Source: an uncultured Gammaproteobacteria bacterium
GTDB lineage: Bacteria; Patescibacteriota; Microgenomatia; Levybacterales; GWA1-39-11
Assembly: GCA_964427615.1 (NCBI GenBank)
Contig: CAYRUR010000002.1
Span: 81,847-145,846, forward strand
Direction of reading: 5' to 3'
DNA length: 64,000 nt
A program made the translations under genes and the position numbers. The notes below the pieces were generated by a model that was not told the DNA's origin, searched no databases, and saw only the letters and a program-made list of their open reading frames with translations. Positions 12,565 to 63,457 of this stretch are shown one piece after another. How positions within the stretch are numbered: position 1 is the first letter of the stretch; every line of letters begins with the position of its first letter.

Positions 12565-13524
12565 TCAAGTAAATGCGGGGAGGATTTCTTTTTGGTAGAA
12601 CTTAAAAAACTTTTCTTGGCTCTCCCAGCTCCCCACTTGATGCACATAAAGATAATCATACCCTGCATCAAAAAATTGCTGTATGGCTTGGATATGTTCT
12701 TCTTTATTAGGTCCCAAAGGCATGGTTTCAGGAAGATCTTCAATCGTAAGCTTTTCTACTGCAGCTTCAAAGTGCTTCGGAGAAGGAAGATCTGAACCCA
12801 AAGATCCACCCAGCATACCAGTAGGCCACTGCTCAAATACCATTTGTTTTGCCCGAGATCTATCCTCATCATAACAAACCTTTATCTGTCCGTATTTTGG
12901 TTTTCCTTTACCACCACTTTCTTCAAACGCTTCTATGAGCTTTCTACTAGGTTTGGTCGCAATAATACCATCAGCATACTCACCTGCAAGACGTGCAGAC
13001 CGACTAGTTGATACTGCCAAAAGGATAGGTACAGGATTTTTGGGAAGAGTAAACAGTTTGGCTTGCTCTACCGCATAATACTCACCAAAGTAGTCTACAT
13101 AATCACCAGTAAAAAGAGCTTTTATAATATTTATTGCTTCCATCATCATTTCCCGACGAATTTCAGGTCTTGGCCAGCCATATCCTACTATGTGCTCATT
13201 TAAATTTTCTCCTGTCCCAAGTCCTAGCATAAATCTTCCTTCCATGACTTGCCCACACGTTGCTGCTGCTTGCGCTATGGTGGTAGGATGTATGCGAATA
13301 AGCGGACAAGTAACCGCAGTACCTACTGCAAGGTTTTTTGTCTCCTGTGAAATACCACCTAGTGTTGTCCAAACAAACGGGCTTTCACCTTGTTTTGCAA
13401 TCCAGGGATGAAAGTGATCAGAAATAAAAGCAAAAGAAAATCCAACCTCTTCTGCTCTTTTGGCAAGGTTGATCAATGTTTGCGTATCATGTTCTTCACT
13501 TGATAGTGCATACCCCAATCTCAT
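12565..13524 (-). CDS. LLM-class (luciferase-like) flavin/F420-dependent oxidoreductase
   Basis: 319 aa TIM-barrel LLM signature (N-terminal RLGY...FISDHFHPW). Confidence 0.65.
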   Translation of the reverse strand: MRLGYALSSEEHDTQTLINLAKRAEEVGFSFAFISDHFHPWIAKQGESPFVWTTLGGISQETKNLAVGTAVTCPLIRIHPTTIAQAAATCGQVMEGRFMLGLGTGENLNEHIVGYGWPRPEIRREMMMEAINIIKALFTGDYVDYFGEYYAVEQAKLFTLPKNPVPILLAVSTSRSARLAGEYADGIIATKPSRKLIEAFEESGGKGKPKYGQIKVCYDEDRSRAKQMVFEQWPTGMLGGSLGSDLPSPKHFEAAVEKLTIEDLPETMPLGPNKEEHIQAIQQFFDAGYDYLYVHQVGSWESQEKFFKFYQKEILPAFT

Positions 13525-23988: not shown

Positions 23989-26900
23989 CTAGAGAGAGGA
24001 GGAACGTCTTCTTACTCTCTTTTTTCTGAAGAATATGAAGAAGGATCCTACAACAATAGCAAGTAAGAAACCTGCTGCTGTCATAATGTAAGGATTACCC
24101 GATATACCTGCTGGTTTTACTTGTATGGTTAATTCCTGCTTCTTCACATCTCCATCCAAGTTAATACTTTGCTCTCCTTTAACATTCCCATAGGATATAA
24201 TGACCCGATGCTGTCCTGCTTCTACATCTTCAAAAGTAACCCAACCATCTTTATCAGTAGTACCAGTTCTGGGAGTTGAGTGCACTGTCACGCTTGCCCC
24301 TCCAACTGGTTTTTTATTTGTATCAATAACTTGAATTGTCAAATCATACGTTTTCTGATCAGAACCTATTTGTTCCTGAGGGTCTGACTGATCGGTGTTC
24401 TCCTGCTGTGTTTTACCTTGAGAGCAGGAAGTGGTTAGAATCCATCCTGGTTCTACATTATTTGATTTCTCAAGGCTTGGATATTTCTGTTTATTTTTTT
24501 CAATCAGTTCTTTATACCTATTTCCATCTCCTAATATTTTTTCTGCAATCTCCCACAATCCATCCCCTGCTTGTACCGTATATGTTTGGCAAACGTTTTT
24601 CTTTTCTTTTTCATTTCCACCAACTGGCTTTAGTTCTGAAAAGACAATAGGATTGTTACCAGCATTTACTCCTAATGTTTTAGCAGAAATTTCATTTGAC
24701 CATTCCCCGGTGGCACAACCATTCCCTGCTCTCACTCTGAAGTAATACGTTGTATTAGGACTCAAGCCTTTGACAGTATAGGTCCTCGTACCTTTTCCAC
24801 CAATATTCTCCACTCCAAATTGATATTCTCCTGACTTAGTACCATACTGCAATACATAATGATCATACGGATCTTGAGCATCGGTAAAATATAGTTCTAC
24901 AGTCTCAGCATCTTTGGCAAGAGCTGCATACAATGAAACCACTTTTTCTCCAGGAGTTAATGCAGAACAAACAGATGAGGAAGGTGAAGGTACAGTCTGA
25001 GAAGAATCAGCAGAAGGAAGTGAATCCTTTAATACGAAAGTGTGCGTAGAAAAACCCTCATCGTATGTAAAAGATAAAGATCCTCCACCATCTGTTTTTA
25101 ATTCTCTCCATAAACTATCATCACGAAAGATATAAAAGGTTTTATTGACTGGAAGATTCGAAAAAACTATGTCTACACTCTGATTTGTATCACTTGCCAT
25201 TCTCCACTTGCGATAATTATCTCTCCAATCTTCTATCGTGATATCAACATTTCCTGAAGTAACCGTAGCTGTCATATCTCTTTTTACATATTTTACTACT
25301 CTATCATGCTGGGCTGTACCTTTTAGTACGTTACCAGCACTACTTACTCGATTATAGTAATCTGTCGTTTTTGTCCAATCATTCGTGTTATCTAAATAAG
25401 CCTGGTAAATACTATTACCCCCTGTTGACTTGTCAATTAAGTATGACGATCCTATGTTATTAGGGAAAAAATAAGCTGTTGGATAAATATCATTAAGAAG
25501 TTCTAAAAGGTAATAATCTGAAAATGCAAAAGTAAAATCACTTGTACTAGAGTAAGTCAAACCATACTTATTCACAGTATCATAATCTGAATTTTTCGTC
25601 TTCATTTCTAATATAAAAAGTTCTTCTCCTCTCTTTTGCCAATTATTACGCTTTGATTGGGGGTAACTTGTATCTTGAGCCAGCTTTAATAAGTTGTAAG
25701 AGATTATTGAACTTCTCCTTTGATCTGATCTCAAATCAGTTATGGGTCTATCTGCAAGATTATCTGCTAATTTTACTAATGAATCACTAATTTTCGTTAC
25801 CAATGATTGCTGAGTAGTATCATTTTCTATTAAATCTTTAAATTCACGCAATCCATTTAATGCCCATCCTTGCCCTCCATCCCAAAAGATTGGACCGTTA
25901 ATAGTATCTGTGGCATAGTTATACCGTTGATAAAACCAGCCTTCAGGAGTTTGTAGTTTGTCAATCATTGTGTTAATCATTTTAATCGCATCACTTTTAT
26001 ATGTGTCGTTATTCAGAAGCTTCCCCATATACCAGAAAAATTGAGGCTTTCCTCCACCAGCATCAATCCAAAATTCACTTCCTGCTCCAGAACTATGAGA
26101 AAAATTATCGTAGGTTACATTATAAGCTGCACGTGAATAACTAAGAATATCTCCCATTGCATTATAAAGACTTATATCTCCTGTTTCTTCATATGCTGGT
26201 TTAATTGTTGTCCAACCAGCAAAAGTACAGTCAGTATAATTTCCCGCACCTAGAGGATAACATCGTAAATCAGAGGTTCCTGTTCTAATGGTATCTTTAG
26301 TACGTTCAGCTTGTTCGTTTCTTAATTCTGGATATCCCAACTCATCAAATACACCTCCCATAAATGCATTATCCCAATCAGCGCCTTTATAATTAAGAAT
26401 ACTTTTTCTAATCTGATTAGCAAAAACTCCACCATAATTCCCTTCTAGCACTTCAGGACGATTATGAATATAGTGAAATTCCAACATGTCTTTTACACTT
26501 CTATACTGGTCGTACTTCGGATCAAGCGTTATGCTTCCTATTGCTTGATGTGAGTTATCATTTGGATCGAAGAGTTTGAAAGTAAAACTTAATGTGACAT
26601 CTCTATTATAAGTTCGAGGAGCATGAATTGTTTTACTAAAACTACCTAGAGCGTCGGTAGTGACCGTCCACATTGGATATTTTTGTATTTTATCTACATA
26701 TACATTATTACTCCCCACCTTTAAAAATCGCCATTCAAAGCTAGGAACTCCTTTATCTTTATCAAACACCTTAGTCCATGTAACCCAACTGGAAGAACCA
26801 GTACTATCTACATCAACCGTCTGTGCATATCCACCTCCATTTGACCAGTAGATGTCAGATGCTCCTATGCGAAAATAAGGTGTTGCTGCTACTGCGTCGT

Positions 26901-27291
26901 AATAGCGTATAAAAACAAGCACATTCTCAAATTCATCATATGCATGAGAATATGACCAACCTGTTCCGAACTCTAGTGTACCTGTATACTGTTTTGCCGT
27001 CTCCCCTTGATAAGTAGTATCTGTGTAATCTTTTTCAGGACCACCATCATAGTTGTATAGATAGTAAGTATGATTAGGAATAAGACCACTGCCTGTTATC
27101 GTAATTTGCTCTCCGAGAAAAGGTGTTGTGTTACTTATTGAAAAAGATGAAGATGCAGAAACCTTAGGAATAATTATTGTAAATAGTAAAGAAAAGAATA
27201 GAGATAAGTTAAAAAGGAAAAAGAATAATCTCCTGGTATTCTGACTATAGTCTAATATAGGAGAAAAAAGCTTTCTATTAACAAATACCAT
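23989..27291 (-). CDS. large cell-surface protein (signal/anchor, ~700-aa unknown domain, FN3, LysM, CarboxypepD-reg-like beta-sandwich, C-terminal TM anchor)
   Basis: 1100 aa; FN3 motif YYFRVRAGNG; LysM YTVQAGDGLWEIAEKIL; C-terminal hydrophobic helix + RKKRVRRR. Confidence 0.6.
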   Translation of the reverse strand: MVFVNRKLFSPILDYSQNTRRLFFFLFNLSLFFSLLFTIIIPKVSASSSFSISNTTPFLGEQITITGSGLIPNHTYYLYNYDGGPEKDYTDTTYQGETAKQYTGTLEFGTGWSYSHAYDEFENVLVFIRYYDAVAATPYFRIGASDIYWSNGGGYAQTVDVDSTGSSSWVTWTKVFDKDKGVPSFEWRFLKVGSNNVYVDKIQKYPMWTVTTDALGSFSKTIHAPRTYNRDVTLSFTFKLFDPNDNSHQAIGSITLDPKYDQYRSVKDMLEFHYIHNRPEVLEGNYGGVFANQIRKSILNYKGADWDNAFMGGVFDELGYPELRNEQAERTKDTIRTGTSDLRCYPLGAGNYTDCTFAGWTTIKPAYEETGDISLYNAMGDILSYSRAAYNVTYDNFSHSSGAGSEFWIDAGGGKPQFFWYMGKLLNNDTYKSDAIKMINTMIDKLQTPEGWFYQRYNYATDTINGPIFWDGGQGWALNGLREFKDLIENDTTQQSLVTKISDSLVKLADNLADRPITDLRSDQRRSSIISYNLLKLAQDTSYPQSKRNNWQKRGEELFILEMKTKNSDYDTVNKYGLTYSSTSDFTFAFSDYYLLELLNDIYPTAYFFPNNIGSSYLIDKSTGGNSIYQAYLDNTNDWTKTTDYYNRVSSAGNVLKGTAQHDRVVKYVKRDMTATVTSGNVDITIEDWRDNYRKWRMASDTNQSVDIVFSNLPVNKTFYIFRDDSLWRELKTDGGGSLSFTYDEGFSTHTFVLKDSLPSADSSQTVPSPSSSVCSALTPGEKVVSLYAALAKDAETVELYFTDAQDPYDHYVLQYGTKSGEYQFGVENIGGKGTRTYTVKGLSPNTTYYFRVRAGNGCATGEWSNEISAKTLGVNAGNNPIVFSELKPVGGNEKEKKNVCQTYTVQAGDGLWEIAEKILGDGNRYKELIEKNKQKYPSLEKSNNVEPGWILTTSCSQGKTQQENTDQSDPQEQIGSDQKTYDLTIQVIDTNKKPVGGASVTVHSTPRTGTTDKDGWVTFEDVEAGQHRVIISYGNVKGEQSINLDGDVKKQELTIQVKPAGISGNPYIMTAAGFLLAIVVGSFFIFFRKKRVRRRSSSL

Positions 27292-44864: not shown

Positions 44865-45675
44865 GATTGATCCAGAAGTATTACGCACCCATGCAGAACA
44901 GACAGTTACCCAGCTGAGGGAAGTTGCGGAACACCACGAAAGAACGTATCCAGCAAACATAGATGTAGTTTGGGTTTTCAGTGGTCCTGGCACGTACTAT
45001 AATCCCATACTTGAAGAAAAAGATCCGGAATTTGCCAGATGGATGGATAGAGACAGAATACGCTTAGGTATAGCTTTAGTACGTGAGATAACAGCAAGTA
45101 AAATAAGACAAGCAAACACTACAGTAAAAGCACATGATTTACAAACAGCAGATTTAGAGAATTACAGTCCTATTTTTTACTACAATGGCATACCAGCAGA
45201 AAATGCTGCTTTCAGACGTGCCTTGCAAGACACAAATCAAAAGTGGCCAAAAACAAAACTGGATACCAGTAAAATACTTATAGCAGATACTTTTCTAGAA
45301 CCCGACGGAACACCTCAGTTAATACGCCACACTCTAGATCAAGTAGTCAACTTTTTTCAGGAAGTAGAAAAGGCTGATAAGGATCCTTCACACCCACTTC
45401 ATGGAAGACACACTGTGGCTCTCGTTTCCAATATTGAGCACTTCGTTCGTATCCCTCACTACCTCAATCTCTATAATAAAAAACGTGAAGAAGAAGGAAA
45501 AGAGCCTCTGCAGTTCTGGGCATATGGGCTCAGAACACGAGAGGTCGAGGCATACCAACAAGGTACGTATTTAGGAAAATTACCTGATGTATATCAAAAA
45601 AGTGAAATTGATAGACTCATAACCTATGCAGAACAAGGACATTTGGATATAGAACCTGCTTATTTCAGAACTTAA
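44851..45675 (+). CDS. putative DUF218/YdcF-like protein, start unresolved (open frame from 44851; first in-frame ATG only at 45043; upstream ATG 44847 is out of frame by one GACA unit)
   Basis: N-terminal extension VVWVFSGPGTYYN and TVALVSNIEHFVRI resemble DUF218 conserved blocks; track ORF 45043-45675. Confidence 0.45.
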   Translation, partial: QTDRQIDPEVLRTHAEQTVTQLREVAEHHERTYPANIDVVWVFSGPGTYYNPILEEKDPEFARWMDRDRIRLGIALVREITASKIRQANTTVKAHDLQTADLENYSPIFYYNGIPAENAAFRRALQDTNQKWPKTKLDTSKILIADTFLEPDGTPQLIRHTLDQVVNFFQEVEKADKDPSHPLHGRHTVALVSNIEHFVRIPHYLNLYNKKREEEGKEPLQFWAYGLRTREVEAYQQGTYLGKLPDVYQKSEIDRLITYAEQGHLDIEPAYFRT

Positions 45676-46888
45676 TACTTCTCCTTGGGCTTACCCAACT
45701 ACCGGTAGATCTCTCGGAAAATACAAGAGGAAGAGTAAAAAGAAATAACAGAGAGTCGATATACCGTAAAAAGAAAAATCCTACTCCATACAAAAGCATC
45801 AGAGGTTTTTTCTCTAAGATAGTTGCAAAAATGGTTAACAGATAATCCATTAAAAATAATCCTACAAATAGCTCTGCAAGTGAAATATTTGGTTGTATTG
45901 CTATGACATGAAATTGATTTAGTAACAAAAGTGAGAGAACCAGAGGAGAAGCCAATACTACCAAAGCATATAAAAGCATTTCTATCAAAAACCCTCCTAA
46001 AAAAAGCCAGAACATGCTGGGCCATACACCATTACGAAAAATGGTTTGCCAAAACCCCAAATTCCATCGCTTTACCTGCTTAATATAATCCTTCAAATAA
46101 TAAGGATCCTGACTATACCCTTTCACTGCTGGAATATAAGCAACATTTCCCAATTTTTTCTTTCTTACCTCAAAGGTCATGTTGAAATCTTCAATAACCA
46201 AGTTTGGTGCATCAATAGAAAGTTTTTTTAATACTTTTGTTTTGTACACAGATAACCCCCCTGGAATAATATACGTGACATTGGTATACTTCCACGTCAT
46301 CCCATATCGCATACCTAATTGCAAAATTCTCCATAATCGCACACGATAGGCAATAAAAAAATTTTCCCAAAATCCATAATTCTTTATTTCAGTAACTTGA
46401 TGAGGAGCAACCGCAGCTGTATCTTTTTGTGAGAGAAGTGGTAAGGCGTATTTCATGTAATCTGGATGAATCATTACATCTGCATCGTGAATAAGAATTG
46501 CCTTATATTTCTCATATAAGTTATAACGCTTCATGGTATATACCAACGCCTTTGCTTTTCCTCCATTTGGTTTCTGTGTTATTACATTCACCCGCATATT
46601 GCGTGCTACCGTTGCTGTTTTATCAGTAGAAGAATCATTTACCAAATAAATATTTTTTTTAGGGAGTACTTTTGCTAACGCCTCTATTGTTTTTCTAATA
46701 CTCGTCTCCTCATTATGAGCGGGAATAATGGCAGCAACTTCATTTATTGTAATTGTTTTTGGCTTTCTTCCTTTTCTTTTTGGATGTCTTTTAGGGATTT
46801 TTTCAAACACAAACCGTACCCACCCGATTGCTAACCAGAGGCTAAAATTCACTCCCATTAATGTCATGAAGGATATTAACCATACCAT
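45665..46888 (-). CDS. family 2 glycosyltransferase, polytopic membrane (processive-type)
   Basis: 407 aa; AAIIPAHNEE, multiple C-terminal TM helices. Confidence 0.7.
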   Translation of the reverse strand: MVWLISFMTLMGVNFSLWLAIGWVRFVFEKIPKRHPKRKGRKPKTITINEVAAIIPAHNEETSIRKTIEALAKVLPKKNIYLVNDSSTDKTATVARNMRVNVITQKPNGGKAKALVYTMKRYNLYEKYKAILIHDADVMIHPDYMKYALPLLSQKDTAAVAPHQVTEIKNYGFWENFFIAYRVRLWRILQLGMRYGMTWKYTNVTYIIPGGLSVYKTKVLKKLSIDAPNLVIEDFNMTFEVRKKKLGNVAYIPAVKGYSQDPYYLKDYIKQVKRWNLGFWQTIFRNGVWPSMFWLFLGGFLIEMLLYALVVLASPLVLSLLLLNQFHVIAIQPNISLAELFVGLFLMDYLLTIFATILEKKPLMLLYGVGFFFLRYIDSLLFLFTLPLVFSERSTGSWVSPRRSIKF

Positions 46889-47817
46889 ACCATCGTTTTT
46901 TTAATCCCGTCTTCCAAATCATACTGCATGTCCCATCCCAAACTACGGATTTTAGATAAATCAGGTACTCTTCTATTGTGATCATGTGCCGGACGTCCCA
47001 CAAAAGAAATACCATTTTTCATGTTTGTAAAATGAAGAAAAGATTCTGCCAAAGCAAGAATCGTCATTTCTCTATCACTTCCCAAGTTATATACCTCTCC
47101 CTTTTCCCCTTTCTCACTCACTACAAGCAGCCCCTCCACAAGGTCATCAACAAAACAAAATGTTCTTGTCTGACTTCCATCGCCTTGTACTGGTAAAGGT
47201 TTTCCCTCTTTGATATTTTTTAGAAATGAGGACATGATCCGAGTATCTAACAGATTCATACCAGGACCAAAGGTATTAAAAATCCTTACAATTTTTACAT
47301 CTACTCCAAATTTATAGCTATATACAAAACAAAGACTTTCTCCAATTCTTTTTCCTTCCTCATAAGGACTTCTTTCACCCAAAGGACTTACATTTCCGGT
47401 ATATTCTTCTCGTTGCGGAAATTGTTCTGGCTGTCCATATACTTCTGAAGAGCTTGCATACACAACCACAGCTTTTGTCTTTTGAGCAAGTTGTAATATA
47501 TTACGGGTGCCAATACTTGAAGTAAGAATCATTTCTTCAGCAAGTGGAATGAGGTTTGAGACACCAGTAGGACAGGCTAGATGAAAAATAAAATCAATCT
47601 GCCCTATCTTTTTCTCCATTTCAGGAGAGAATGGATTAGTTATATCCCATTTAAAAAAAGAAAATCGTGGGTATACGGATAAGTGGGTGAGATTTTCTCC
47701 AGTAGAAGTAATAAAGTTATCAACAGCTATCACTGTATGCCCTGCATCCAAAAGTCTTTTGCAAAGATTCATTCCCAAAAATCCTGCCCCACCAGTAACC
47801 AATATTCTTTTTTTCAT
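46876..47817 (-). CDS. NAD-dependent epimerase/dehydratase, UDP-glucuronate decarboxylase (UDP-xylose synthase)-like
   Basis: 313 aa; ILVTGGAGFLG Rossmann motif, YASSSEVYG catalytic region. Confidence 0.7.
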   Translation of the reverse strand: MKKRILVTGGAGFLGMNLCKRLLDAGHTVIAVDNFITSTGENLTHLSVYPRFSFFKWDITNPFSPEMEKKIGQIDFIFHLACPTGVSNLIPLAEEMILTSSIGTRNILQLAQKTKAVVVYASSSEVYGQPEQFPQREEYTGNVSPLGERSPYEEGKRIGESLCFVYSYKFGVDVKIVRIFNTFGPGMNLLDTRIMSSFLKNIKEGKPLPVQGDGSQTRTFCFVDDLVEGLLVVSEKGEKGEVYNLGSDREMTILALAESFLHFTNMKNGISFVGRPAHDHNRRVPDLSKIRSLGWDMQYDLEDGIKKTMVWYG

Positions 47818-47838
47818 TATATACTCCTTTGCACACTC

Positions 47839-49149
47839 TCAAATATGAAATCTGCCAAATAAAAGCTTAGAATTACCGTTTGGACGAGGCGGCATGGTAT
47901 GCAATTCAAATACCAGTGGATTCTTTTCTTTACGTAATAACCCTCTTGTATCAAGAATAGGAACGCCATACTGCAATAAATCTTTATAGGGAATAACTTT
48001 ATGATCAGTAACAATAATCAAAAGGTCTGTATTTTTAACATTTTCTTCTTTCAAAGCACTATTTTGTAATCCTTCAAATTCCGCAACATAGGGATCATGA
48101 TAGGATACTTCTACTCCATATTGCTGAAGCTTATGAGTAATCACTGTTGCTACTGATTCTCTCGTGTCTGCCACATCTGGCTTGTAAGTTACTCCCAACA
48201 ACATCACTCGTTTTTTGCCCCCATGTCCATTTGTTTGGGCAAGTATTTGCATTGTTCTGTCAACCACTTTAAGTGGCTGTCCTTCATTAACATACCCTGC
48301 CAACTCTACCATGGACAGTGAAAGGCCATGTTGTTTTGCATCCTCTACTAAATAAAAAGGATCTACAGGGATACAATGTCCTCCCACTCCTGGTCCCGGA
48401 TAATGAGGCATAAAAGCAAAAGGCTTTGTACCTGCTGCCTCTATCACTTCCCAAATATCTATCCCTACACTTCTTGAATAGTCAGCTATTTGATTCATAA
48501 GACTGATATTCACGAGTCTAAATGTGTTTTCTAAGAGTTTTGACATCTCCGCTGTCTCTAAAGTAGAGACAACAAATACTTCTTTTACCATTGTCTTATA
48601 AAACTGTTCTGCAATTGCTATTGAGTACTCTCCGTACCCTCCCACAACTTTAGGAATATCACGAAATGAGTAGATTGTATTTCCAGGATCAATTCTCTCT
48701 GGAGAATAAGAAAGAAAGAAATCAATATCTGGCACAAGCCCTGACTTTTCAAGAATAGGCAAGGCAACCATACGGGTAGTACCAGGAGCAATAGAGCTCT
48801 CCACGGTTATCAGCTGTCCTGGTCTTAAATAAGTAGCAACTGTTTCAAATGCTTGTTTAAATGGTTGAAGGTCGGGGATTTTTAGTGCATCTACTGGAGT
48901 GGGTACACTCACACATACAACATCACAAGAAGAAAGCTTTGAAAAATCGACAGTTGCAGAAAAGCGGGGAATATGCATACTCTTAACCCTTTCAACAGCT
49001 TGGGAAGCCGTATCAAAACCAAGCACCTCATATCCTGCTTCGCTTGCACCTTGCCCTAAGGTCTTGCCTACATACCCTACACCCACTATACCTACTCGGG
49101 CCTTTTTGTTAATAATCTTGCCATATAACTCCCCCTTTTTTTCCATCAA
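47839..49149 (-). CDS. UDP-glucose/GDP-mannose dehydrogenase-family nucleotide-sugar dehydrogenase
   Basis: 436 aa; VGIVGVGYVG, GGHCIPVD catalytic Cys. Confidence 0.8.
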   Translation of the reverse strand: MMEKKGELYGKIINKKARVGIVGVGYVGKTLGQGASEAGYEVLGFDTASQAVERVKSMHIPRFSATVDFSKLSSCDVVCVSVPTPVDALKIPDLQPFKQAFETVATYLRPGQLITVESSIAPGTTRMVALPILEKSGLVPDIDFFLSYSPERIDPGNTIYSFRDIPKVVGGYGEYSIAIAEQFYKTMVKEVFVVSTLETAEMSKLLENTFRLVNISLMNQIADYSRSVGIDIWEVIEAAGTKPFAFMPHYPGPGVGGHCIPVDPFYLVEDAKQHGLSLSMVELAGYVNEGQPLKVVDRTMQILAQTNGHGGKKRVMLLGVTYKPDVADTRESVATVITHKLQQYGVEVSYHDPYVAEFEGLQNSALKEENVKNTDLLIIVTDHKVIPYKDLLQYGVPILDTRGLLRKEKNPLVFELHTMPPRPNGNSKLLFGRFHI

Positions 49150-49260: not shown

Positions 49261-50058
49261 TTACTTCTTATTAACAATAAGGGAAAGAAGAAAAAGAAAA
49301 AGAGCTATCAAAACAATAGATCCTCCTGCTGCCAAATCAAAGTAAAAGGACATAACTACACCACTTATCACAGAAAAAATAGAAATAATCTCAGCAATTA
49401 CAATGGTGTGCAAGAAATCTTTTTTAAATTGTAAAGCAGTAATAACCGGAATAACGACCAGTGCGGAGATGAGCAAAACACCAAGAATAGGAATAGCCAG
49501 AGCGACCGTAAGTGCTGCTAGAATAATAAAGAGAATATTAATAAAGGTTACCGGAATTCCACCAACACGTGCTGATTGTTCGTCAAAAGATACATATACC
49601 AACTCTTTAAAAAACGCCACTACCAACCCGATTATGACAATTCCTAAAATTGCAATACGCACGACATCTGTTTCTCTCACCGCTAAAATGCTACCGAACA
49701 AAAAATTAAAAAGATTTGTATTAAATCCATTGGCAAAGCCTATCAAAACAACTGCCACCGCAAGGCTTCCTGATAGAAAAATAGATAGTGCTGATTCTCC
49801 ATATACTCGTTTGGAAATACGCAATCGTTCAATAGCCACTGATGAAAAAACAGCGGCAATCATCGCAGTAAGCACTGGACTTACACCCAGTAAAAGCCCT
49901 ATAGCTACACCTGCCAATGACACATGAGAAAGAGTGTCAGCAATCAGCGAATAACGACGCAATACCAGAAAAATACCGATAAGAGGAGCAATTACTCCTA
50001 TCACGAGTCCTGCTTGAAGTCCTCTAATAATAAAATCGTATGCAAAAATATCAATCAT
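49261..50058 (-). CDS. metal (Zn/Mn) ABC transporter permease
   Basis: 265 aa polytopic; operon with ATPase and SBP. Confidence 0.75.
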   Translation of the reverse strand: MIDIFAYDFIIRGLQAGLVIGVIAPLIGIFLVLRRYSLIADTLSHVSLAGVAIGLLLGVSPVLTAMIAAVFSSVAIERLRISKRVYGESALSIFLSGSLAVAVVLIGFANGFNTNLFNFLFGSILAVRETDVVRIAILGIVIIGLVVAFFKELVYVSFDEQSARVGGIPVTFINILFIILAALTVALAIPILGVLLISALVVIPVITALQFKKDFLHTIVIAEIISIFSVISGVVMSFYFDLAAGGSIVLIALFLFLLSLIVNKK

Positions 50059-50822
50059 AATATATGTGGACCCGCTACATATTTAATATCTCTTCCATAC
50101 AACTTTTCCAGATAATTCCCTTTTACAAATGTTTCAGTCGCACCATGATACACTAATGTTTGGTTAATACAGGCAATTTCCGTAACCTCATTTGCGACAA
50201 CTCCTATATCATGAGAAACCAAGACTAATGTGAGGTTTAACTTTTGATTCAATTTTCTCAATAAAGTATAAAAGTCTATTTGATTTTTCACATCTACTCC
50301 TGCTGTGGGCTCATCCAGAAAAATAATTTCCGGTTCTCCTGCTAAAGCACGTGCAATGAAAACTCTCTGCTGCTGACCACCGGACAAATCACCTATTCTT
50401 CTCTTAGCAAATTCCTGCATTTCCACTTGTTCCAAAGACCGGTCTATAATTTTTCTATCTTCTTGCGTCAACCAATGAAACAAACCTTTTTTGGCATACC
50501 GTCCCATGGCAACCACTTCTTCAACAGTAATAGGAAATCGGGAATCAAAATTGTGAAATTTTTGAGGAATATAGCCTAATTTTGATTTATCTTTAAATCG
50601 ATTAATAGGTTGTCCAAAGAGTTTTATCTCTCCTTCCTTTATAGGTAAAAGACCTAGTATGAGTCTTAACAAGGTTGACTTTCCTCCTCCGTTGGGGCCG
50701 ATAATTCCTAAGTAATCTCCTCTATGAATTGCAAAAGAGATATCTTTTAACACCAACTCTTTGGCATAAGAAAAAGAGATATGAGAAATTTCTATGATAT
50801 TTTCTGAATGATCTAGTTGCAT
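50055..50822 (-). CDS. metal ABC transporter ATP-binding protein
   Basis: Walker A GPNGGGKST, signature LSGGQQQR. Confidence 0.85.
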   Translation of the reverse strand: MQLDHSENIIEISHISFSYAKELVLKDISFAIHRGDYLGIIGPNGGGKSTLLRLILGLLPIKEGEIKLFGQPINRFKDKSKLGYIPQKFHNFDSRFPITVEEVVAMGRYAKKGLFHWLTQEDRKIIDRSLEQVEMQEFAKRRIGDLSGGQQQRVFIARALAGEPEIIFLDEPTAGVDVKNQIDFYTLLRKLNQKLNLTLVLVSHDIGVVANEVTEIACINQTLVYHGATETFVKGNYLEKLYGRDIKYVAGPHIL

Positions 50823-53862: not shown

Positions 53863-54042
53863 ACCTCATTTCATACTATCTACTAGGTGTAAGAATGATG
53901 TTCTACAATCCGTAAGAAGCGTGTAATGTACACTAAGCACTATTATTCTTTATATAAAACTCAATGCAATGATTTATTTTCAATACATAATTAAAATTAT
54001 TTTGCTTATTGACATGAAAAACTCACTCATATATATTAAAAA

Positions 54043-56073
54043 ATGAATTGCTCAATGCTTATGAAAATGTTATCTAAAAAGACTCTTCACCTTGCACTCC
54101 CTTCCTTCCTTATTCTTGCTATAGCTGCTATTATCACATCTAACAACACTAATCTCTTCAACTTTCAAGCTGATGCTGATACTGCAAATCCAGAGCCAAA
54201 AGTAATGAATAACCTTTTGTCTAACCCTTCCATGGAAGTCGAAGTAAACGGCGAAGTCGAAGCATGGGGAGCCCGTACATCAAATAATTGGGATAACACA
54301 ATTCATCACTATGGCAATGCTTCTATGCATGTAGTACCTGCTACTGACGCTTACCGCTACTCACATAATACTATTACTCTAGAAGCCGGAAAAACTTATG
54401 TACTGCAAGGCTGGGTTAAAACAGAAAATGCTTCTGGCAGTGGGGTATATATTCGTTATGCCCAAACAAACCCTACTCCAACTAAAGTCTTTACCACTGA
54501 AAAACTAAATGGAACCAATGGCTGGACAAAGGTCACCAAAACCTTCACTCTTCCAGCAGATTATGCAGCAGGACGAGTTGATATTGTTTGGGAGATAACC
54601 GCAGGAGAAGCTTGGATAGACGACGTTGCTCTTTGTGAAAATGAATGTATAGAAGGAATAGCAAATAAGCTTGCGAATTCTTCTATGGAAGTAGTAGTAA
54701 ATGGTGATGCTGAAGCATGGGGAGCGCGAGCAACCAATAACTGGGACAACGCTGTCTACCATTCCGAAACTGCTTCCATGCATGTCGTGCCTGCAAATGA
54801 CGGCTACTACTACGCACATCAAACAATTACTCTTCAAGCAGGATCCACCTATACTATACAAGGATTTATAAAAACAGAAAATGCTTCTGGAAGTGGGGTA
54901 TATATTCGTTATGCTCAAACAAACCCTACTCCAACTAAGGTCTTTACCACTGAAAAACTAACTGGAACTAATGATTGGACAAAGGTCACCAAAACCTTCA
55001 CGCTGCCTGCAGATTATGCAGCAGGACGAGTTGATATTGTTTGGGAAATCAATGCTGGTGAGGCTTGGATTGATGATGTTATGCTCTGCGAAGGAAATGG
55101 TCCTTGTGCCCAAGATACTACTGCTCTCAAAGTATGTGATGAATCAATCCATAACAAATATGTAACCACCGGCCCTGACGGACAGACATATGCCACCTGG
55201 CATCCATCCACAGACCCTGAAACAGGTTGTATCTTCGGACATGAACATGGCAACAATCCGGAAAGCGTTTTGCCAGGATACAAACCAGCATTTGGATACA
55301 CTGCAGGTCGCATGGGCATGACAGAACCACATAATGGATTTAAAGTGTATGCTTTCACTGACTACGATGATGAGAGCTGGGTCGTAACACATCACTTTGG
55401 CACAGCCGGTAGAGGCACGCTTTGTAACCAATTCCATACCATAGATGTTGCCGTAGGACAAGCTAGTGGAGAAGTACTCGCTGATCTACACACTATGGCA
55501 GATCATGGACGTTCTCGATTCTTTGATGGTCAATACATGACACCAGCAGAATGCCCTGATCAAGTAAATATCAATTCCTTTGGTATTAGAAGAATCCCTA
55601 TGTCTCCTGATGGATATGAGCCATGGTTGGTAAATGATAAGATACATCATCTTGGACTCAATGTTGCGCTTAACATCCTAACTTCAGATGCCATCATGGG
55701 CTGTGAAGATCCTACCTGTAGTGTAATGAAGCGCAATGGTACTAACACCGGTTCTCGCAGAAGATTTCAAGCGACAGTAGGATCAAACGGCTTGCAAATT
55801 AACGAAACTGTTACTACTACCAACAGCGGTATCTTTTATACTGACTCTATGGGACATGAGATGAGAATGGCTACTGATTCTGACTCTGTTATGCAATATA
55901 TCAAACCAGGATACCATGGTGAGGCAACTATTGCTCGCAGTGACCAATTGGACGCAGCTCGCGGAGGATGCTGGTACTACAACGGACAAAATGCACCTAT
56001 GGGTTGCTCAACAGGAGACTTGAACGGTGCAGATCCTCTACTCTTACCAACAGAGTTAATTGGATCTAACTAA
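54043..56073 (+). CDS. secreted protein: signal peptide, two tandem CBM-like beta-sandwich modules (~150 aa each), then ~330-aa Cys/His-rich domain of unknown function
   Basis: 676 aa; internal repeat ...ENASGSGVYIRYAQTNPTPTKVFTTEKL...TLPADYAAGRVDIVWEI... present twice. Confidence 0.7.
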   Translation: MNCSMLMKMLSKKTLHLALPSFLILAIAAIITSNNTNLFNFQADADTANPEPKVMNNLLSNPSMEVEVNGEVEAWGARTSNNWDNTIHHYGNASMHVVPATDAYRYSHNTITLEAGKTYVLQGWVKTENASGSGVYIRYAQTNPTPTKVFTTEKLNGTNGWTKVTKTFTLPADYAAGRVDIVWEITAGEAWIDDVALCENECIEGIANKLANSSMEVVVNGDAEAWGARATNNWDNAVYHSETASMHVVPANDGYYYAHQTITLQAGSTYTIQGFIKTENASGSGVYIRYAQTNPTPTKVFTTEKLTGTNDWTKVTKTFTLPADYAAGRVDIVWEINAGEAWIDDVMLCEGNGPCAQDTTALKVCDESIHNKYVTTGPDGQTYATWHPSTDPETGCIFGHEHGNNPESVLPGYKPAFGYTAGRMGMTEPHNGFKVYAFTDYDDESWVVTHHFGTAGRGTLCNQFHTIDVAVGQASGEVLADLHTMADHGRSRFFDGQYMTPAECPDQVNINSFGIRRIPMSPDGYEPWLVNDKIHHLGLNVALNILTSDAIMGCEDPTCSVMKRNGTNTGSRRRFQATVGSNGLQINETVTTTNSGIFYTDSMGHEMRMATDSDSVMQYIKPGYHGEATIARSDQLDAARGGCWYYNGQNAPMGCSTGDLNGADPLLLPTELIGSN

Positions 56074-58089: not shown

Positions 58090-59226
58090 ATGATAAAGCA
58101 GCATATACTGCCTGGCACTAAAAAAATCGCAGTACTACGAGCAAACGGGCTTGGAGATTTCATGTTTGTGCTCCCCGCTCTACAAGCCATACGTGAAACA
58201 TACCCACAAGCAGAAATCGTTTATTTAGGAAAAAATTGGCATAAAGATTTTTTACATCAAAGACCTTCACCTATTGATAAAGTCATAGCCATTCCTAATA
58301 TAAAAGGAGTAGGAGAAGAAAATAATCAACTTGAAGATAAAAAAGAACAAAATCTTTTTTTTGAGAGGATGCAACAAGAGCAATTTGATCTGGCTTTGCA
58401 ACTACATGGAGGAGGAAAATACTCCAACCCATTTATAAAAAAATTAGGGGCCAAAATAACTGCTGGATTAAAAACCCCGGATGCAGAACCACTTACCATT
58501 TCCATTCCTTATATATATTACCAACATGAAATATTGCGCTATCTAGAAGTTGTCTCTTTTATAGGAGCTACGACAAGTAGGATAAATCCAAAAGTTGAGA
58601 TCACAAGAGAAGAAATTGAAGAAGCAAAACCTTTCTTAAGACACACCTCATACGCAGTGTTGCATCCAGGAGCTAGTGATTTAAGAAGAAGATGGCATCC
58701 TGAAAGATTTGCCTATCTTGGTGATTTTCTTGCTCAGCAAGGATTACCCGTATATATTACTGGAACAAAAGAGGAAGAAGAAACCGTAAGTAAAGTTGTG
58801 AGCCATATGCGAAAAAAAGCCATAAATCTTTGTAGTAAACTCTCTTTGAGAGGCTTAACAGGTCTCCTTTCTCAGACAGAAATAGTAATAGCAAATGATA
58901 CAGGACCTCTGCATCTTGCAGAAGCACTTGGCACTCCAACAGTTGGCATCTACTGGTGTGGTAATCTCATTAACGCAACTCCTCTGACACGTACTCTCAA
59001 TCGCGCACTTCCTTCTTGGATTACCATCTGTCCTCTGTGTGGCACTGACATTGCTCGTCCAGGATTTCCTTTTGAGTATGAGAAAACGAATTGTTCTCAT
59101 CTTACTTCTTTCGTAAATGCCGTAAGTACTGAGGAGGTTATTTCCGCTGTAACTCATTTGCTAGATCAGACTACAATCACCAAAAAAAGATACAAAGATA
59201 AACCTTTTCACTTTTTCCATAAATAA
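58090..59226 (+). CDS. family 9 glycosyltransferase (heptosyltransferase-like)
   Basis: 378 aa; N-terminal LRANGLGDFMFVLPALQAIRETYP typical of GT9. Confidence 0.65.
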   Translation: MIKQHILPGTKKIAVLRANGLGDFMFVLPALQAIRETYPQAEIVYLGKNWHKDFLHQRPSPIDKVIAIPNIKGVGEENNQLEDKKEQNLFFERMQQEQFDLALQLHGGGKYSNPFIKKLGAKITAGLKTPDAEPLTISIPYIYYQHEILRYLEVVSFIGATTSRINPKVEITREEIEEAKPFLRHTSYAVLHPGASDLRRRWHPERFAYLGDFLAQQGLPVYITGTKEEEETVSKVVSHMRKKAINLCSKLSLRGLTGLLSQTEIVIANDTGPLHLAEALGTPTVGIYWCGNLINATPLTRTLNRALPSWITICPLCGTDIARPGFPFEYEKTNCSHLTSFVNAVSTEEVISAVTHLLDQTTITKKRYKDKPFHFFHK

Positions 59227-59457
59227 CTAATTCTTTTTTATGAAGTCACTCTAAAAAGCACACTACCATAAATACTACAGGTTTATTAATTAATCCTCGC
59301 TATAAGAAAATCATACACTATTCATATCCAAAAAAAGAACAGGAAAAGGGTAATTCATATTACTATAAGATTTACTTCTCTTACCTGCTTCTTACTTACT
59401 TCTCGTTGTATTCTTAGGTTTTACCATTATCATAACTCGTGTAATAAAAAAAAAGTC

Positions 59458-60519
59458 ATGATAACGCAAAGACCCCTAAAAGCCATAAGAGTTAAACAAA
59501 TTGCAGTCTTAAGAGCACTTCAACTGGGTGATTTACTTGTTGCTATTCCTGCCATACGGGCTTTAAAAAAGGAATTGCCTAACGCAACTATTACCCTCAT
59601 TAGTCTTCCTTGTGCGGAAGAGTTTGTAAAACGATTTGATCATTACTTTGATGATTTTATTCCTTTCCCAGGATATCCAGGCCTTCCAGAACAAAAAATA
59701 TCTTTTGACAAACTAATTTCTTTTATACACGAAGTTAGAAAAAAACAATTTGATCTTCTGATCCAAATGCAAGGAAACGGTTCTGTCACCAACCCTTTGA
59801 TAGAGCTTCTCGGAGCAAAAAAAAATGCAGGCTACTATCGCAAAATAGATTATCAACCCAAAGGCTTATTCCTGGAATATCCAGAAGAAAAAAATGAGAT
59901 TGAAAAACATATGGCACTTATGCATTATCTTGGCATAAAACACAAAAGTACCCACCTTGAAATACCGGTAACTTCCCAAGAACAAAAAGAGACAGAAAAA
60001 ATAAAAAAAACCCATCGTCTCCACAACTATATAGGTATTCATCCAGGAGCAAGCAATAAGAATAAACAGTGGAATGCGCACCACTTCGCTTCTGTGGCTG
60101 ACTACTTTGCACTACAAGGATACCAAATCGTTGTTACCGGAACCACAAAAGACAAAAAAGCAGCAGATGATATGCAAAAATATATGCAGACAAAGCCTCT
60201 ATCCCTTATTGGAAAAACATCCTTGGGTATGCTAGCAGAAATTCTCCAATCTGCTCGCTTAGTCATCACCAATGACACGGCTACTTCCCACATAGCTTCA
60301 GCAGTAAAAACAAAAAGTGTGATTATCTTTTCTCCCTCATCACAAATACACCGCTGGAAACCACTTAATACCACAATACATATTGCTCTTTCTCCTAAAG
60401 ATACTCAAAATCCGCAATTTGTCATAGATACGGCACTACTATTATTAAACAACTCAAAAAAGTCAGAAACGTCGCAGTCAATAAATACGAAAACAAAACA
60501 CATACCAATTACTCTATGA
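59458..60519 (+). CDS. family 9 glycosyltransferase (heptosyltransferase-like), second copy
   Basis: 353 aa; VLRALQLGDLLVAIPAIRALKKELP. Confidence 0.65.
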   Translation: MITQRPLKAIRVKQIAVLRALQLGDLLVAIPAIRALKKELPNATITLISLPCAEEFVKRFDHYFDDFIPFPGYPGLPEQKISFDKLISFIHEVRKKQFDLLIQMQGNGSVTNPLIELLGAKKNAGYYRKIDYQPKGLFLEYPEEKNEIEKHMALMHYLGIKHKSTHLEIPVTSQEQKETEKIKKTHRLHNYIGIHPGASNKNKQWNAHHFASVADYFALQGYQIVVTGTTKDKKAADDMQKYMQTKPLSLIGKTSLGMLAEILQSARLVITNDTATSHIASAVKTKSVIIFSPSSQIHRWKPLNTTIHIALSPKDTQNPQFVIDTALLLLNNSKKSETSQSINTKTKHIPITL

Positions 60520-61526
60520 AAAACCAAACGCAAAAAAGAAAAAAAATATTTACCTGGCATATACATGGAAGTTACTTGTACTATCTTTCACAAACTAATA
60601 GCGACATTTTTCTTCCCACAAAGCCTGGAACACATGAAGGGTATACCGGAAAAAGCGGTCCCTTCCCCTGGCCGGATACCGTACATGAAATACCAGCAGA
60701 AGAGGTAAAAAATTATGATTTTGATCTTATCCTTTTCCAGTCAAAGAAAAATTATCAAGAGGATCAGTACGAAATTTTAAGTCCAAGACAAAGAACACTA
60801 CCCAAAGTTTATTTAGAACATGATCCTCCCCAACAACACCCCACAGACACGATACATTGGGTGCAAGACCCTTCCACCACCCTCGTACAGGTCACACACT
60901 TTAACGATCTCATGTGGGATACAGGAATAACACCCACAAAAGTAATAGAACATGGTGCAATCACACCTCCACCTGTTACCTATACTGGCACTATTCCCAA
61001 AGGAATTGTCGTAATTAACAACCTAAAAGAGCGAGGAAGAAGGCTTGGATATGACATTTTTGAAAAAGTCAGAAAAGAGATCCCGCTTGACATCGTTGGT
61101 ATGAATTCAAAAGAAATTGGCGGATTAGGAGAAGTTCCCCACCATGAACTGCCTGCTTTTATAGCTCAATACCGTTTCTTTTTTCATCCCGTTAGATATA
61201 CCAGTCTTGCACTTTCGCTTGTGGAGGCAATGATGGTAGGTATGCCTGTAGTTGCATTGTCAACCACAGAAATAACCAGTGTAATTAAAAACGGAGTAAA
61301 TGGGTATGCAGATACCAACATACAAAAACTCGTTGTGTACATGCACCTGCTTTTGGAGAATGAAGAACTGGCTCATGAAATAGGAAGAGGAGCCAAAATA
61401 ACTGCTCAACAAAAATATAATATCCACCGGTTTAGCAAAGACTGGGAACAACTTTTTACGCTTCTCACAGAAAAAGAAAATATTCTACCAAACTCACCAA
61501 GCATGACAAAAGGAGGAATTATATGA
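60516..61526 (+). CDS. family 4 glycosyltransferase
   Basis: 336 aa; EX7E region SLALSLVEAMMVGMPVV; overlaps neighbours by 4 nt. Confidence 0.65.
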   Translation: MKNQTQKRKKIFTWHIHGSYLYYLSQTNSDIFLPTKPGTHEGYTGKSGPFPWPDTVHEIPAEEVKNYDFDLILFQSKKNYQEDQYEILSPRQRTLPKVYLEHDPPQQHPTDTIHWVQDPSTTLVQVTHFNDLMWDTGITPTKVIEHGAITPPPVTYTGTIPKGIVVINNLKERGRRLGYDIFEKVRKEIPLDIVGMNSKEIGGLGEVPHHELPAFIAQYRFFFHPVRYTSLALSLVEAMMVGMPVVALSTTEITSVIKNGVNGYADTNIQKLVVYMHLLLENEELAHEIGRGAKITAQQKYNIHRFSKDWEQLFTLLTEKENILPNSPSMTKGGII

Positions 61527-63457
61527 AAAAAAGAATACTATTTATATCAGAACACGCTTCACCCCTTGCCACAGTAGGCGGGACAGATGCAGGAGGACAA
61601 AATATTTACGTAGATAAACTCGCAAAAGAGTTAGTGAAACTGGGATATGAAATAGATATTTTTACCCGCTGGGATAATACACAAGTTCCCCAAATTATTC
61701 ATTATCAGCAAGGAATTAGGGTAATTCATATAAAAGCTGGGCCAATTGCTCATCTACCCAAAGAAAAGCTCCTACCCTTCATGAATACATTTACCAAAAA
61801 TGCTCTGCGCTTTATAAAAAAAGAATCCTTACACTACAAACTTGTACATGCTCATTTTTTCATGTCCGCACTGGTAGCTGCAAGACTGAAGGAAAAATTA
61901 GGAATTCCTTTTGTAGTAACCTTCCATGCACTGGGCAAAGTCAGACGCTTACATCAAGGGAAACAAGATACGTTCTCAGACGGACGTTTTGCTATAGAGG
62001 AAATGGTTATCAAAGAAGCAGATCACATTATTGCCGAGTGTCCCCAAGACAGAGAAGATTTAATCTATCACTACAATGCAGACCAAAATAAAATTAGTAT
62101 TATCCCCTGTGGATTTGACCCCCATGAATTCTACCCTATGAATAAACAGCTAGCACGTCTTCAGCTTAAGATTAACCAGGAAGCGTTTGTCATACTACAA
62201 CTTGGACGGATAGTACCACGAAAAGGAGTAGACACCGTTATCAAAGCGGTAGGACATCTTTTGAGAAAAAGAGAAATACCACTAAAATTAATTATTGTCG
62301 GAGGAGACTCCAAAAAGCCTGACCCTGTTATCACGCCTGAAATTGGAAGACTGCAAAACTTAGCAAAAAAGGAAGGCATTACAATACACACTACTTTTAC
62401 GGGAAGAAAGGATAGAAATGAACTACTCACTTACTACAATGCAGCTGATATCTTTGTAAGCACCCCTTGGTATGAACCATTCGGTATTACTCCTCTTGAA
62501 TCAATGGCATGTGGAATCCCTGTTATAGGATCTGAAGTAGGAGGTATTCAATTTAGTGTAACCAACGGTAAAACTGGATTTCTGATACCTCCCAAAAACC
62601 ATAAGGCACTAGCAGAAAAAATAACACTGCTCTACGAAAATCAAAAACTACGAGAACAAATGAGTAATGCTGCCATTAAACGGGTCAACACCTTCTTTAC
62701 TTGGTCCACCGTTGCTTCTTCTGTTTCATCACTCTACGAAAAAATACTCTTCTCTAGTTTTACTCATACACAAGAACACCAAGATACCATTGATATTATA
62801 GAAAATAATTTTGATAACCTCTCTACAGTGATAGAAAATACAAAAAAAACGTTGCGTATTCCTATCTATCATGCTGCCTCAATTTTGGTAAAAAGTATTC
62901 GCTCTGAAGGAAAAATTCTGATTTGTGGCAATGGAGGTAGTGCATGTGATGCACAACATTTTGCAGTAGAACTAGTAGGACACTTCATGTTAGACAAAAG
63001 AACTGCACTCCCTGCTCTTGCACTCAATACTGACTCATCCATTTTAACTGCTGTTCCGAATGACTTTGCATTTACCGATGTTTTTGCCAGACAAGTAGAA
63101 GCATTAGGAAAGCCTGGAGATATACTTTTTGGCATAAGTACCAGCGGAAATTCTAAAAATATTCTTAAAGCATTTAAGCAGGCAAAAAAGAAAAATATGA
63201 TCTGTATTGGATTACTTGGAAAAAATGGAGGTGCTTTAAAAGAGTTATGTGACATTGCTCTCGTAGTCCCATCAAATAATACCCAAACAATTCAGGAAAT
63301 ACATACCAACATTATTCACACCTTGTGTGAAATTATAGAAAAGCAACTCTTTTCCTCAAAAACAACTCCAAAAAAAGCACAGGTTGCATCACCACCTCAC
63401 CCTAAGAAGGCATTGTACCAACTGAATTTGCAAGAAGAGGAGGAGGAGGAAGAATAA
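61523..63457 (+). CDS. fusion protein: SPS/MshA-like GT4 glycosyltransferase (aa 1-~410) + SIS-domain sedoheptulose-7-phosphate isomerase GmhA (aa ~440-620)
   Basis: N-terminal ASPLATVGGTDAGGQNIYV; C-terminal ILICGNGGSACDAQHFAVELVGHF...FGISTSGNSKNIL classic GmhA motifs. Confidence 0.75.
   Translation: MKKRILFISEHASPLATVGGTDAGGQNIYVDKLAKELVKLGYEIDIFTRWDNTQVPQIIHYQQGIRVIHIKAGPIAHLPKEKLLPFMNTFTKNALRFIKKESLHYKLVHAHFFMSALVAARLKEKLGIPFVVTFHALGKVRRLHQGKQDTFSDGRFAIEEMVIKEADHIIAECPQDREDLIYHYNADQNKISIIPCGFDPHEFYPMNKQLARLQLKINQEAFVILQLGRIVPRKGVDTVIKAVGHLLRKREIPLKLIIVGGDSKKPDPVITPEIGRLQNLAKKEGITIHTTFTGRKDRNELLTYYNAADIFVSTPWYEPFGITPLESMACGIPVIGSEVGGIQFSVTNGKTGFLIPPKNHKALAEKITLLYENQKLREQMSNAAIKRVNTFFTWSTVASSVSSLYEKILFSSFTHTQEHQDTIDIIENNFDNLSTVIENTKKTLRIPIYHAASILVKSIRSEGKILICGNGGSACDAQHFAVELVGHFMLDKRTALPALALNTDSSILTAVPNDFAFTDVFARQVEALGKPGDILFGISTSGNSKNILKAFKQAKKKNMICIGLLGKNGGALKELCDIALVVPSNNTQTIQEIHTNIIHTLCEIIEKQLFSSKTTPKKAQVASPPHPKKALYQLNLQEEEEEEE

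Follow-up and report, generated by a model that had tools for sequence, protein, structure and literature searches.

The stretch of DNA considered here, called the window below, is 64,000 nucleotides long and was taken from contig CAYRUR010000002.1 (positions 81,847 to 145,846) of assembly GCA_964427615.1, a probable Patescibacteria-like genome. An open reading frame (ORF) of 676 amino acids is present on its forward strand at 54043 to 56073, stop codon included. The encoded protein has a signal-like N-terminus, two carbohydrate-binding modules (CBMs) in tandem and a C-terminal domain rich in histidine; the ORF call and Pfam agree with this layout, which had been proposed in an earlier note on the same DNA. 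The C-terminal domain belongs to a family of more than 1,000 clusters at 50% identity that is unnamed and lacks both a Pfam model and a solved structure, and no match to its predicted fold was detected. We give about an even chance to the explanation that this is a secreted modular protein whose C-terminal domain is a metal-dependent enzyme with glycans of the envelope or of the extracellular space as its substrate. The features which the argument uses are the following.

54009 to 54037, forward strand: sigma-70-like promoter TTGACA-17-TATATT, 11 of 12 matches to the consensus, abutting the first ATG
54043 to 54177, forward strand: putative N-terminal signal peptide or signal anchor, with n-region KMLSKK, hydrophobic core L17 to I31 and a possible A-D-A cleavage site at amino acids 43 to 45
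54208 to 54642, forward strand: CBM_4_9 module 1, amino acids 56 to about 200 in the register of the repeat (PF02018 stretch 56 to 179)
54418 to 54593, forward strand: homogenised tract, copy 1, 176 nucleotides, 94.3% identical to copy 2
54661 to 55095, forward strand: CBM_4_9 module 2, amino acids 207 to about 351, 80% amino acid identity to module 1
54871 to 55046, forward strand: homogenised tract, copy 2, the partner of 54418 to 54593
55105 to 56070, forward strand: C-terminal histidine-rich domain, amino acids 355 to 676 (322 amino acids), of an uncurated family
55135 to 55437, forward strand: conserved core with the proposed metal or active site, comprising C365, H370, D379, Y383, W386-H387-P-x-x-D391, C396, H400-E-H402-G, Y419, E428-P-H430-x-G-F-K434, H451 and H465
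56068 to 56070, forward strand: codon of the terminal Asn676, directly 5' of the stop codon

The earlier note had remarked on the many cysteines, histidines and glycines of the C-terminal part, and the composition bears this out: the last 322 amino acids contain 4.3% His, 2.8% Cys and 11.2% Gly, against a window background of 2.2%, 0.6% and 6.8%. The note could not place this part in a family, and neither can the curated collections. Over amino acids 355 to 676 a search of Pfam-A 2025 returns noise only (LRR_10, E=0.49), NCBIfam 20.0 and PHROGs v4 return no match, and neither the single sequence nor the family profile finds anything credible among the PDB chains. Judged by its sequence relatives the domain is not an orphan, and is a member of a sizeable uncharacterised family. 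A word-indexed search gave 38 relatives, all of them called "hypothetical" and with the precomputed Pfam field empty except for P0035, which carries PF24517 (CBM96). When 1.84 billion representatives of clusters at 50% identity were searched exhaustively with a profile, there were 1,135 matches with E<=1e-3, of which 542 had E<=1e-30. The GTDB species representatives that were scanned, a set to which the studied genome does not belong, contain at least 512 family loci. The loci kept come from Chloroflexota, Deinococcota, Acidimicrobiia, Gemmatimonadota, some Actinomycetes, Myxococcota, Proteobacteria and one Doudnabacteria genome, and they include the cultured Meiothermus rufus, M. luteus, M. 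hypogaeus and M. taiwanensis. The family is also found in phages and in at least two genomes of the candidate phyla radiation (CPR).

The family has a strong signature. In the numbering of the window protein the invariant columns are H370, P378, D379, Y383, W386, H387, C396, H400, H402, G403, P406, E428, H430, G432, K434, G489, Y525 and G570, and the columns conserved in at least 90% are C365, D391, Y419, H451, H465, D487, R516, E526, W528, Q618 and N676. Of 177 members, 176 carry the motif H[ED]HG, at a median distance of 272 amino acids from the C-terminus (5-95% range 250-295). The last residue is Asn in 164 of the same 177 proteins and is preceded by Pro in 95, the tail being of the form [LIV]-x-x-P-N. 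A hydrophobic N-terminus is found in 137 of the 155 members which begin with Met, and the domain lies at the extreme C-terminus of these mostly secreted proteins. Judged from its sequences, this is a family of domains that end secreted proteins and have a strictly constrained terminus. The window protein carries all of the family motifs (WHPxxD, H[ED]HG, E-x-H-x-G-[FYW]-K, HxG, FH and YExW); its HEHG occupies amino acids 400-403, 277 residues from the end, and it ends with N676.

Two further observations concern other members. The compact Meiothermus homologs (L035 5923-6936, L039 5445-6437 and L040 5893-6939) are 330-348 amino acids long and keep all the motifs; their N-termini are lipobox-like (…LLAC, …LQGC and …LLAC) and they end in …GLGL[KRL]N. 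They would be handy as experimental models; L035 is from M. rufus DSM 22234 (NZ_AUHY01000014.1). Many others, among them P0003, P0005, P0009, P0013 and P0017, have directly upstream of the histidine-rich domain an N-terminal domain of about 250 amino acids which has no Pfam match and for which alignment A2 gives the consensus ...TLLxxY...YxPRQF..G...GWDxL...LNRxAxxAxVWR...PxWLxxW...YxVLxAE..GxPS. This may be a second unknown module, perhaps a glycan-binding one.

A model of the window domain was made with AlphaFold2 from the family alignment. It is mostly beta with a mean predicted local distance difference test score (pLDDT) of 83 and a predicted template modelling score (pTM) of 0.84, and low confidence is limited to a lineage-specific insertion at about amino acids 635-667. 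The compact homolog P0002 gives a model with the same strand order (pLDDT 90.7, pTM 0.87) in which the C-terminal segment is confidently packed, the three 10-residue blocks of 301-330 scoring 92, 92 and 83. In the secondary structure of the window model H430, H451 and H465 stand at the start, the end and the start, respectively, of three consecutive long antiparallel strands, and H370, H387, H400 and H402 lie in the well-ordered N-terminal loop region of the domain. Neighbouring strand ends are a usual location for a histidine site borne by a sheet, and the arrangement would fit a multi-histidine metal centre.

The fold itself has no counterpart in the collections that were searched. With Foldseek against the PDB the two models gave best E-values of 0.15 and 0.067 and template modelling (TM) scores of at most 0.18, none of them significant, and there was no significant match among the viral structures of BFVD. 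A literature search found nothing relevant on the HEHG motif or on a terminal Asn as metal ligand. Two known folds were considered and rejected. An alpha-carbonic anhydrase appeared in the profile-to-PDB search with E=0.46 (5hpj) only, and was absent from the Foldseek lists for both models. A five-bladed propeller of the GH43/GH130/GH32 kind was prompted by the weak Foldseek lists, where the TM scores were at most 0.18, the E-values 0.07-1 and the root-mean-square deviations 13-21 A.

The favoured mechanism can be put as follows. The two tandem CBM_4_9 beta-sandwich modules would bind polysaccharide and hold the C-terminal domain against its substrate. This domain of about 320 amino acids, which is almost always found at the extreme C-terminus of secreted proteins, would be the functional head. 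The motifs WHPxxD, H[ED]HG, EPHxGFK, HxG and FH would together form a multi-histidine metal centre, and a glycan of the cell envelope or of the extracellular matrix would be the substrate which is cleaved or modified. The invariant terminal Asn would fold back into the domain and perhaps contribute its free carboxylate or its side chain to the site.

A metal centre of this kind can also be imagined in an oxidative copper enzyme, like a lytic polysaccharide monooxygenase (LPMO) in function, which the CBMs would deliver to a recalcitrant polysaccharide. Like many LPMOs the protein would be extracellular, is rich in histidine, mostly beta and fused to CBMs, and its HxHG recalls the first of the copper motifs in multicopper oxidases. 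The histidine brace of LPMOs, however, needs His1 of the mature protein, whereas the domain studied here always comes C-terminal, behind other modules. There is no Pfam match of the AA9/AA10 type and no match of the fold to an LPMO or a cupredoxin; the hallmarks of the LPMO families (AA9/10/11/13-17), which are the His1 brace and an Ig-like beta-sandwich, were not found in the domain. We regard a copper enzyme as very unlikely.

Which proteins the domain is attached to, and which genes it lies next to, bears on the substrate. Among 69 long family members the recognisable fusion partners are Big_7 (n=5), CBM96 (n=3), CBM_4_9 (n=3), DUF4082, PA14 and dockerin (n=2 each), while NPCBM, CBM_6, CBM35, CBM60, malectin and Glucodextran_B were each seen in a single case. 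In P0059 a GHL15 glycosidase-like domain (amino acids 261-491) precedes the family domain (amino acids 517-884). Three of the closest homologs are on phage-like contigs. The order on L082 is tail-fibre-like ORFs, the family gene, a holin-like ORF of 104 amino acids with several transmembrane segments and an endolysin (phrog_181, E=5e-35). On L084 a gene for a transmembrane protein is followed by the family gene, an ORF of 62 amino acids, an Amidase_2 endolysin, an ORF with two transmembrane segments and then terminase and portal. The family gene is placed in a lysis cassette on L082 and L084, and not on L085. The family gene of L081 is on the side of the replication module, with a small secreted ORF downstream and no evident placement in a lysis module; L086 is unannotated.

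The small ORF of L081 (9182-9487, forward strand) overlaps the stop codon of the family gene, which encodes P0001, and codes for a secreted protein of 101 amino acids rich in Cys, His, Tyr and Trp (HLTNYGHWHYYGDADWGTYC...). It is possibly a partner of the histidine-rich domain.

The lysis cassettes call to mind a zinc metallopeptidase of the LAS type (M23/M15) which would cut peptidoglycan peptides, either as a phage lysin or as a bacterial enzyme for wall remodelling or attack. Besides the two cassettes, in which the gene lies beside an endolysin, this explanation can point to the motifs: an H-x3-D (in WHPxxD) and an HxH (in H[ED]HG) are found in LAS enzymes too. In M23 these motifs are roughly 80 residues apart, whereas here they are 9 apart; neither Peptidase_M23 nor M15 of Pfam is matched even at E<=1, and Foldseek finds no LAS fold with either model. 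Furthermore, the fusion partners are glycan-binding, with no LysM, SH3 or PG_binding among them, and both phages already encode a separate endolysin. We therefore consider a LAS-like peptidase unlikely, and return to an enzyme acting on glycans as the preferred explanation.

A number of points weigh against that explanation as well. Recognisable glycan modules are found in a minority of the members, and many carry an unannotated N-terminal domain instead. Phage copies are rare: IMG/VR contains 2 loci, and tblastn against 50,697 GenBank phages gave none. In one of the IMG/VR loci (L085) the gene lies between genes for portal or head morphogenesis and genes for virion structure. The 81 loci that were examined show no operon partner common to the family, and synteny holds within lineages only: in Meiothermus with an FAD-linked oxidase-like gene (named from its sequence) and a GGDEF/EAL protein, in Anaerolineae with cohesin-like and dockerin-like genes (also judged from sequence). 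The clustering of the conserved histidines in space is, moreover, a prediction from secondary structure, and the function of every family member a prediction from sequence, model and context.

Some of these observations would suit a domain without catalytic activity, i.e. a metal-stabilised adhesin or lectin, or a metal-scavenging module, on the cell surface. A catalytic precedent is lacking, the L085 copy lies among virion genes as a receptor-binding protein might, the Meiothermus copies are lipoprotein-like, and the window gene is 1.9 kb from a Fur-family regulator gene and a ZnuABC operon. The conserved set of H, D, E, Y, K and R is, on the other hand, typical of active sites and less so of binding surfaces, and both the placement in lysis cassettes and the GHL15 fusion fit an enzyme better. 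A link to a zinc regulon was looked for and rejected, since no operator-like inverted repeat is shared with the Zur/Znu genes and two unrelated genes on the opposite strand lie between. A purely binding or scavenging role seems improbable to us, and the metal-dependent glycan enzyme is kept as the working explanation.

The assignment of the two modules upstream to the CBM4/9 type, made in the earlier note, agrees with Pfam: PF02018 (CBM_4_9) matches in two stretches with 74.9 bits against a cut-off of 25.9 (E=1e-20), and PF22637 (CBM_4_9_1) likewise matches with 59.7 bits. Sequence matches of the module region in the PDB are weak, to CBMs of a GH10 enzyme (4mgq) and of a hyaluronate lyase (4d0q). 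Binding of glycans by the modules is predicted from this family membership. The two modules are 80% identical to each other; the CBMs closest to them in the rest of the family set, which are single-copy, reach 38-41%.

At the DNA level the modules form a direct repeat with an offset of 453 nucleotides. The two strings quoted in the earlier note each occur exactly twice (54424-54507 and 54877-54960, 54578-54596 and 55031-55049), and the diverged first halves and near-identical second halves described there are found again, with about 60-77% and 90-97% identity. A maximum-likelihood segmentation delimits the tract listed above, with 94.3% identity inside it, 66.7% before it and 63.3% after it; the observed likelihood ratio was reached in 0 of 200 permutations. 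Between the first halves the number of synonymous substitutions per site (dS) is 1.95, i.e. saturated, and the number of nonsynonymous substitutions per site (dN) is 0.26; between the second halves the values are 0.33 and 0.02. Third-position identity is 0.45 in the first and 0.80 in the second half (Fisher p=3.5e-5). Since the contrast persists at synonymous sites, purifying selection alone is insufficient to explain the mosaic. The note had left the choice between a recent duplication and gene conversion. A recent duplication disagrees with the saturated first halves, and even the homogenised tract has a dS of about 0.33; the mosaic of identity together with the difference in dS favours conversion of the second halves. 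The mosaic is best read as an old tandem duplication, specific to this lineage, which was followed later by partial intragenic gene conversion of the 3' halves, and this conversion is itself not very recent (dS 0.33). As an example of partial conversion within one gene, between tandem CBMs, the repeat is small and clean.

The strong sigma-70-like promoter upstream is very close to the gene, and because its -10 element ends (at 54037) 6 nucleotides before the first ATG of the ORF, the messenger would be very short-leadered or leaderless. The database copy of the protein, which forms a singleton cluster, starts at Met5 (54055) and has 672 amino acids. Met5 or a nearby Met is probably the true start, in which case the first four codons of the ORF are maybe untranslated. 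The signal-like N-terminus, which agrees with the secreted protein of the note, is read from the translation as a basic n-region followed by a hydrophobic core, and from this the protein is predicted to be secreted. No intrinsic terminator was detected downstream of the gene.

The earlier note also held the composition to be atypical, as would fit horizontal acquisition. The first part of this claim stands: the content of guanine plus cytosine (GC) is 0.43 in the gene against a mean of 0.374 in the 54 other long ORFs of the window (z=2.0, rank 4/55). The use of GC as a sign of acquisition does not stand, because the GC at third codon positions (GC3) is ordinary, 0.321 against 0.286 +/- 0.041 (z=0.85, rank 11/55). 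It is codon position 2 that carries the excess (0.453, z=2.2). Gly, Thr, Asp, His and Cys are abundant in the C-terminal domain while Lys, Ile and Leu, whose codons are AT-rich, are scarce, and the shift at position 2 is explained by this amino acid composition. Compared with the other genes of the window, the synonymous sites do not deviate in the way expected of a horizontally acquired gene.

The relatives of the C-terminal domain give a different kind of information. The closest is P0099, encoded at locus L001 of an uncultured Chloroflexia metagenome-assembled genome with a locus GC of 0.59; it is 47% identical. Next come P0074 (45%) and the phage-contig protein P0001 of L081 (41%). In a neighbour-joining tree, which is without support values, the window domain goes with L001 and L081, and the only other CPR member, L053, is distant. 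The SufS-like protein of the window has its closest named match in the Patescibacteria group, at 64% identity, and the placement of the genome is based on this one match and provisional. On phylogenetic grounds a horizontal acquisition of the gene is plausible. Any such transfer would be old, because the best match is only 47% identical and the codon usage has been ameliorated.

The earlier note had in effect described a recently acquired foreign gene with atypical GC and recently duplicated modules. The raw GC and the fact that the nearest relatives are from Chloroflexia and phage, with none from Patescibacteria, speak for this description. It is contradicted by the GC3 and by an excess at position 2 which fits the amino acid composition, by the age which a best relative at 47% gives to any transfer, and by the saturated synonymous sites in the first halves of the modules. 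We find it highly improbable, and prefer an old duplication and, if the gene was transferred, an old transfer. The terminal oxidase genes of the window may be mentioned here: a COX2-like gene and a gene like subunit I of heme-copper oxidases (5665-8573, forward strand) reach a GC3 of 0.43 and 0.39, where the window averages 0.29. These are far stronger outliers in GC3 than the studied gene, and are candidates for recent acquisition by this Patescibacteria-like genome.

The way of life of these bacteria invites a more daring proposal. All cultivated Patescibacteria are described as obligate episymbionts (PMC11623550), and in activated sludge some have been linked through co-occurrence networks to filamentous bacteria, Chloroflexi among them (PMC10943839). 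This makes a role directed at the surface of a host conceivable, as a speculation. In its full form the proposal would be a new class of enzyme with a new fold, in which the multi-histidine centre is completed by the protein's own terminal Asn, a C-terminal counterpart of the N-terminal histidine brace of LPMOs, and which cleaves a glycopolymer of the envelope. For phages it would serve as an accessory lysin. This Patescibacteria-like epibiont would have taken it over from Chloroflexia or from a phage lineage and equipped it with two CBMs, so as to break through the surface of its host or graze on it. We see only a small chance that all of this is correct.

If the metal-dependent glycan enzyme is real, the family would add a new catalytic family to the repertoire of carbohydrate-active or lysis enzymes. 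It would give a clue to how phages of hosts of the Chloroflexi or Deinococcus type breach layers other than peptidoglycan, and it would be a candidate factor for host attack or feeding in episymbiotic Patescibacteria.

The neighbourhood offers little more. Upstream, on the opposite strand, are genes for a DUF892/ferritin-like protein, a member of the Na/Ca-exchanger family, the Fur-family regulator and ZnuA, followed by a ZnuC ATPase-like gene (50055-50822) and a ZnuB permease-like gene (49261-50058), both named from their translations. Downstream there is a PAS histidine kinase on the opposite strand and then a series of glycosyltransferase genes. Nothing suggests that any of these neighbours forms an operon with the studied gene, and the window contains no tRNAs, rRNA or Rfam matches.

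Two clusters for surface polysaccharide lie on either side. The one at 45665-49149 on the reverse strand contains a PgaC-like GT2, a 4,6-dehydratase or epimerase-like gene and an NDP-sugar dehydrogenase. The one at 58090-63457 on the forward strand, which is the downstream series just mentioned, contains two heptosyltransferase-like GT9 genes, one of the GT1 type and a fusion of an MshA-like GT4 to the sedoheptulose-7-phosphate isomerase GmhA. In a CPR organism of monoderm-like type, heptose chemistry would not be expected. An F420-dependent oxidoreductase of the LLM class is encoded at 12565-13524 on the reverse strand (TIGR03557, 399.7 bits), and dependence on this cofactor is unusual for a reduced Patescibacteria-like genome. 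Finally, the gene at 23989-27291 on the reverse strand encodes a secreted protein of 1,100 amino acids with a GH88-like region (31.3 bits against a cut-off of 26.6), fn3 and CarboxypepD_reg domains and a C-terminal transmembrane anchor. The unsaturated products left by polysaccharide lyases are substrates of GH88 enzymes. Such a protein would fit a lyase activity of the histidine-rich domain, but the gene is 27 kb away.

Among known systems the protein can be compared with several. Overall it is a variant of the secreted plan in which CBMs precede a head, and the head may be a new enzyme family. The modular secreted carbohydrate-active enzymes, such as the xylanases and laminarinases with tandem CBM4 or CBM22, have the same build of an N-terminal secretion signal, two modules of the CBM_4_9 kind and a single head. 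The difference is that the head studied here is not recognisable by Pfam or NCBIfam as a glycoside hydrolase, polysaccharide lyase, carbohydrate esterase or auxiliary activity enzyme, has a predicted fold without a Foldseek counterpart in the PDB, and occurs in what appears to be a Patescibacteria-like host. With the LAS metallopeptidases (lysostaphin and LytM of M23, the L-alanoyl-D-glutamate peptidases of M15) the domain shares the short H-x3-D and H-x-H motifs and the occurrence in phage lysis modules; it differs in sequence family and fold, where no match is found, in the spacing of the motifs and its order of magnitude, and in having partners of the glycan type.

The propellers of GH43, GH130 and GH32 resemble the studied domain in size and in being all-beta, and make up most of the Foldseek lists below the threshold for both models, but there is no real superposition with it. 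A last comparison is with accessory lysins. The LysB esterase of mycobacteriophages is an accessory lysin which removes an outer layer of the envelope. The likeness is that in two phage contigs the family gene stands beside holin and endolysin and has its own signal peptide. The sequence and the predicted fold are unrelated to those of LysB, other phage copies lie outside lysis modules, and most members of the family are encoded on bacterial chromosomes.

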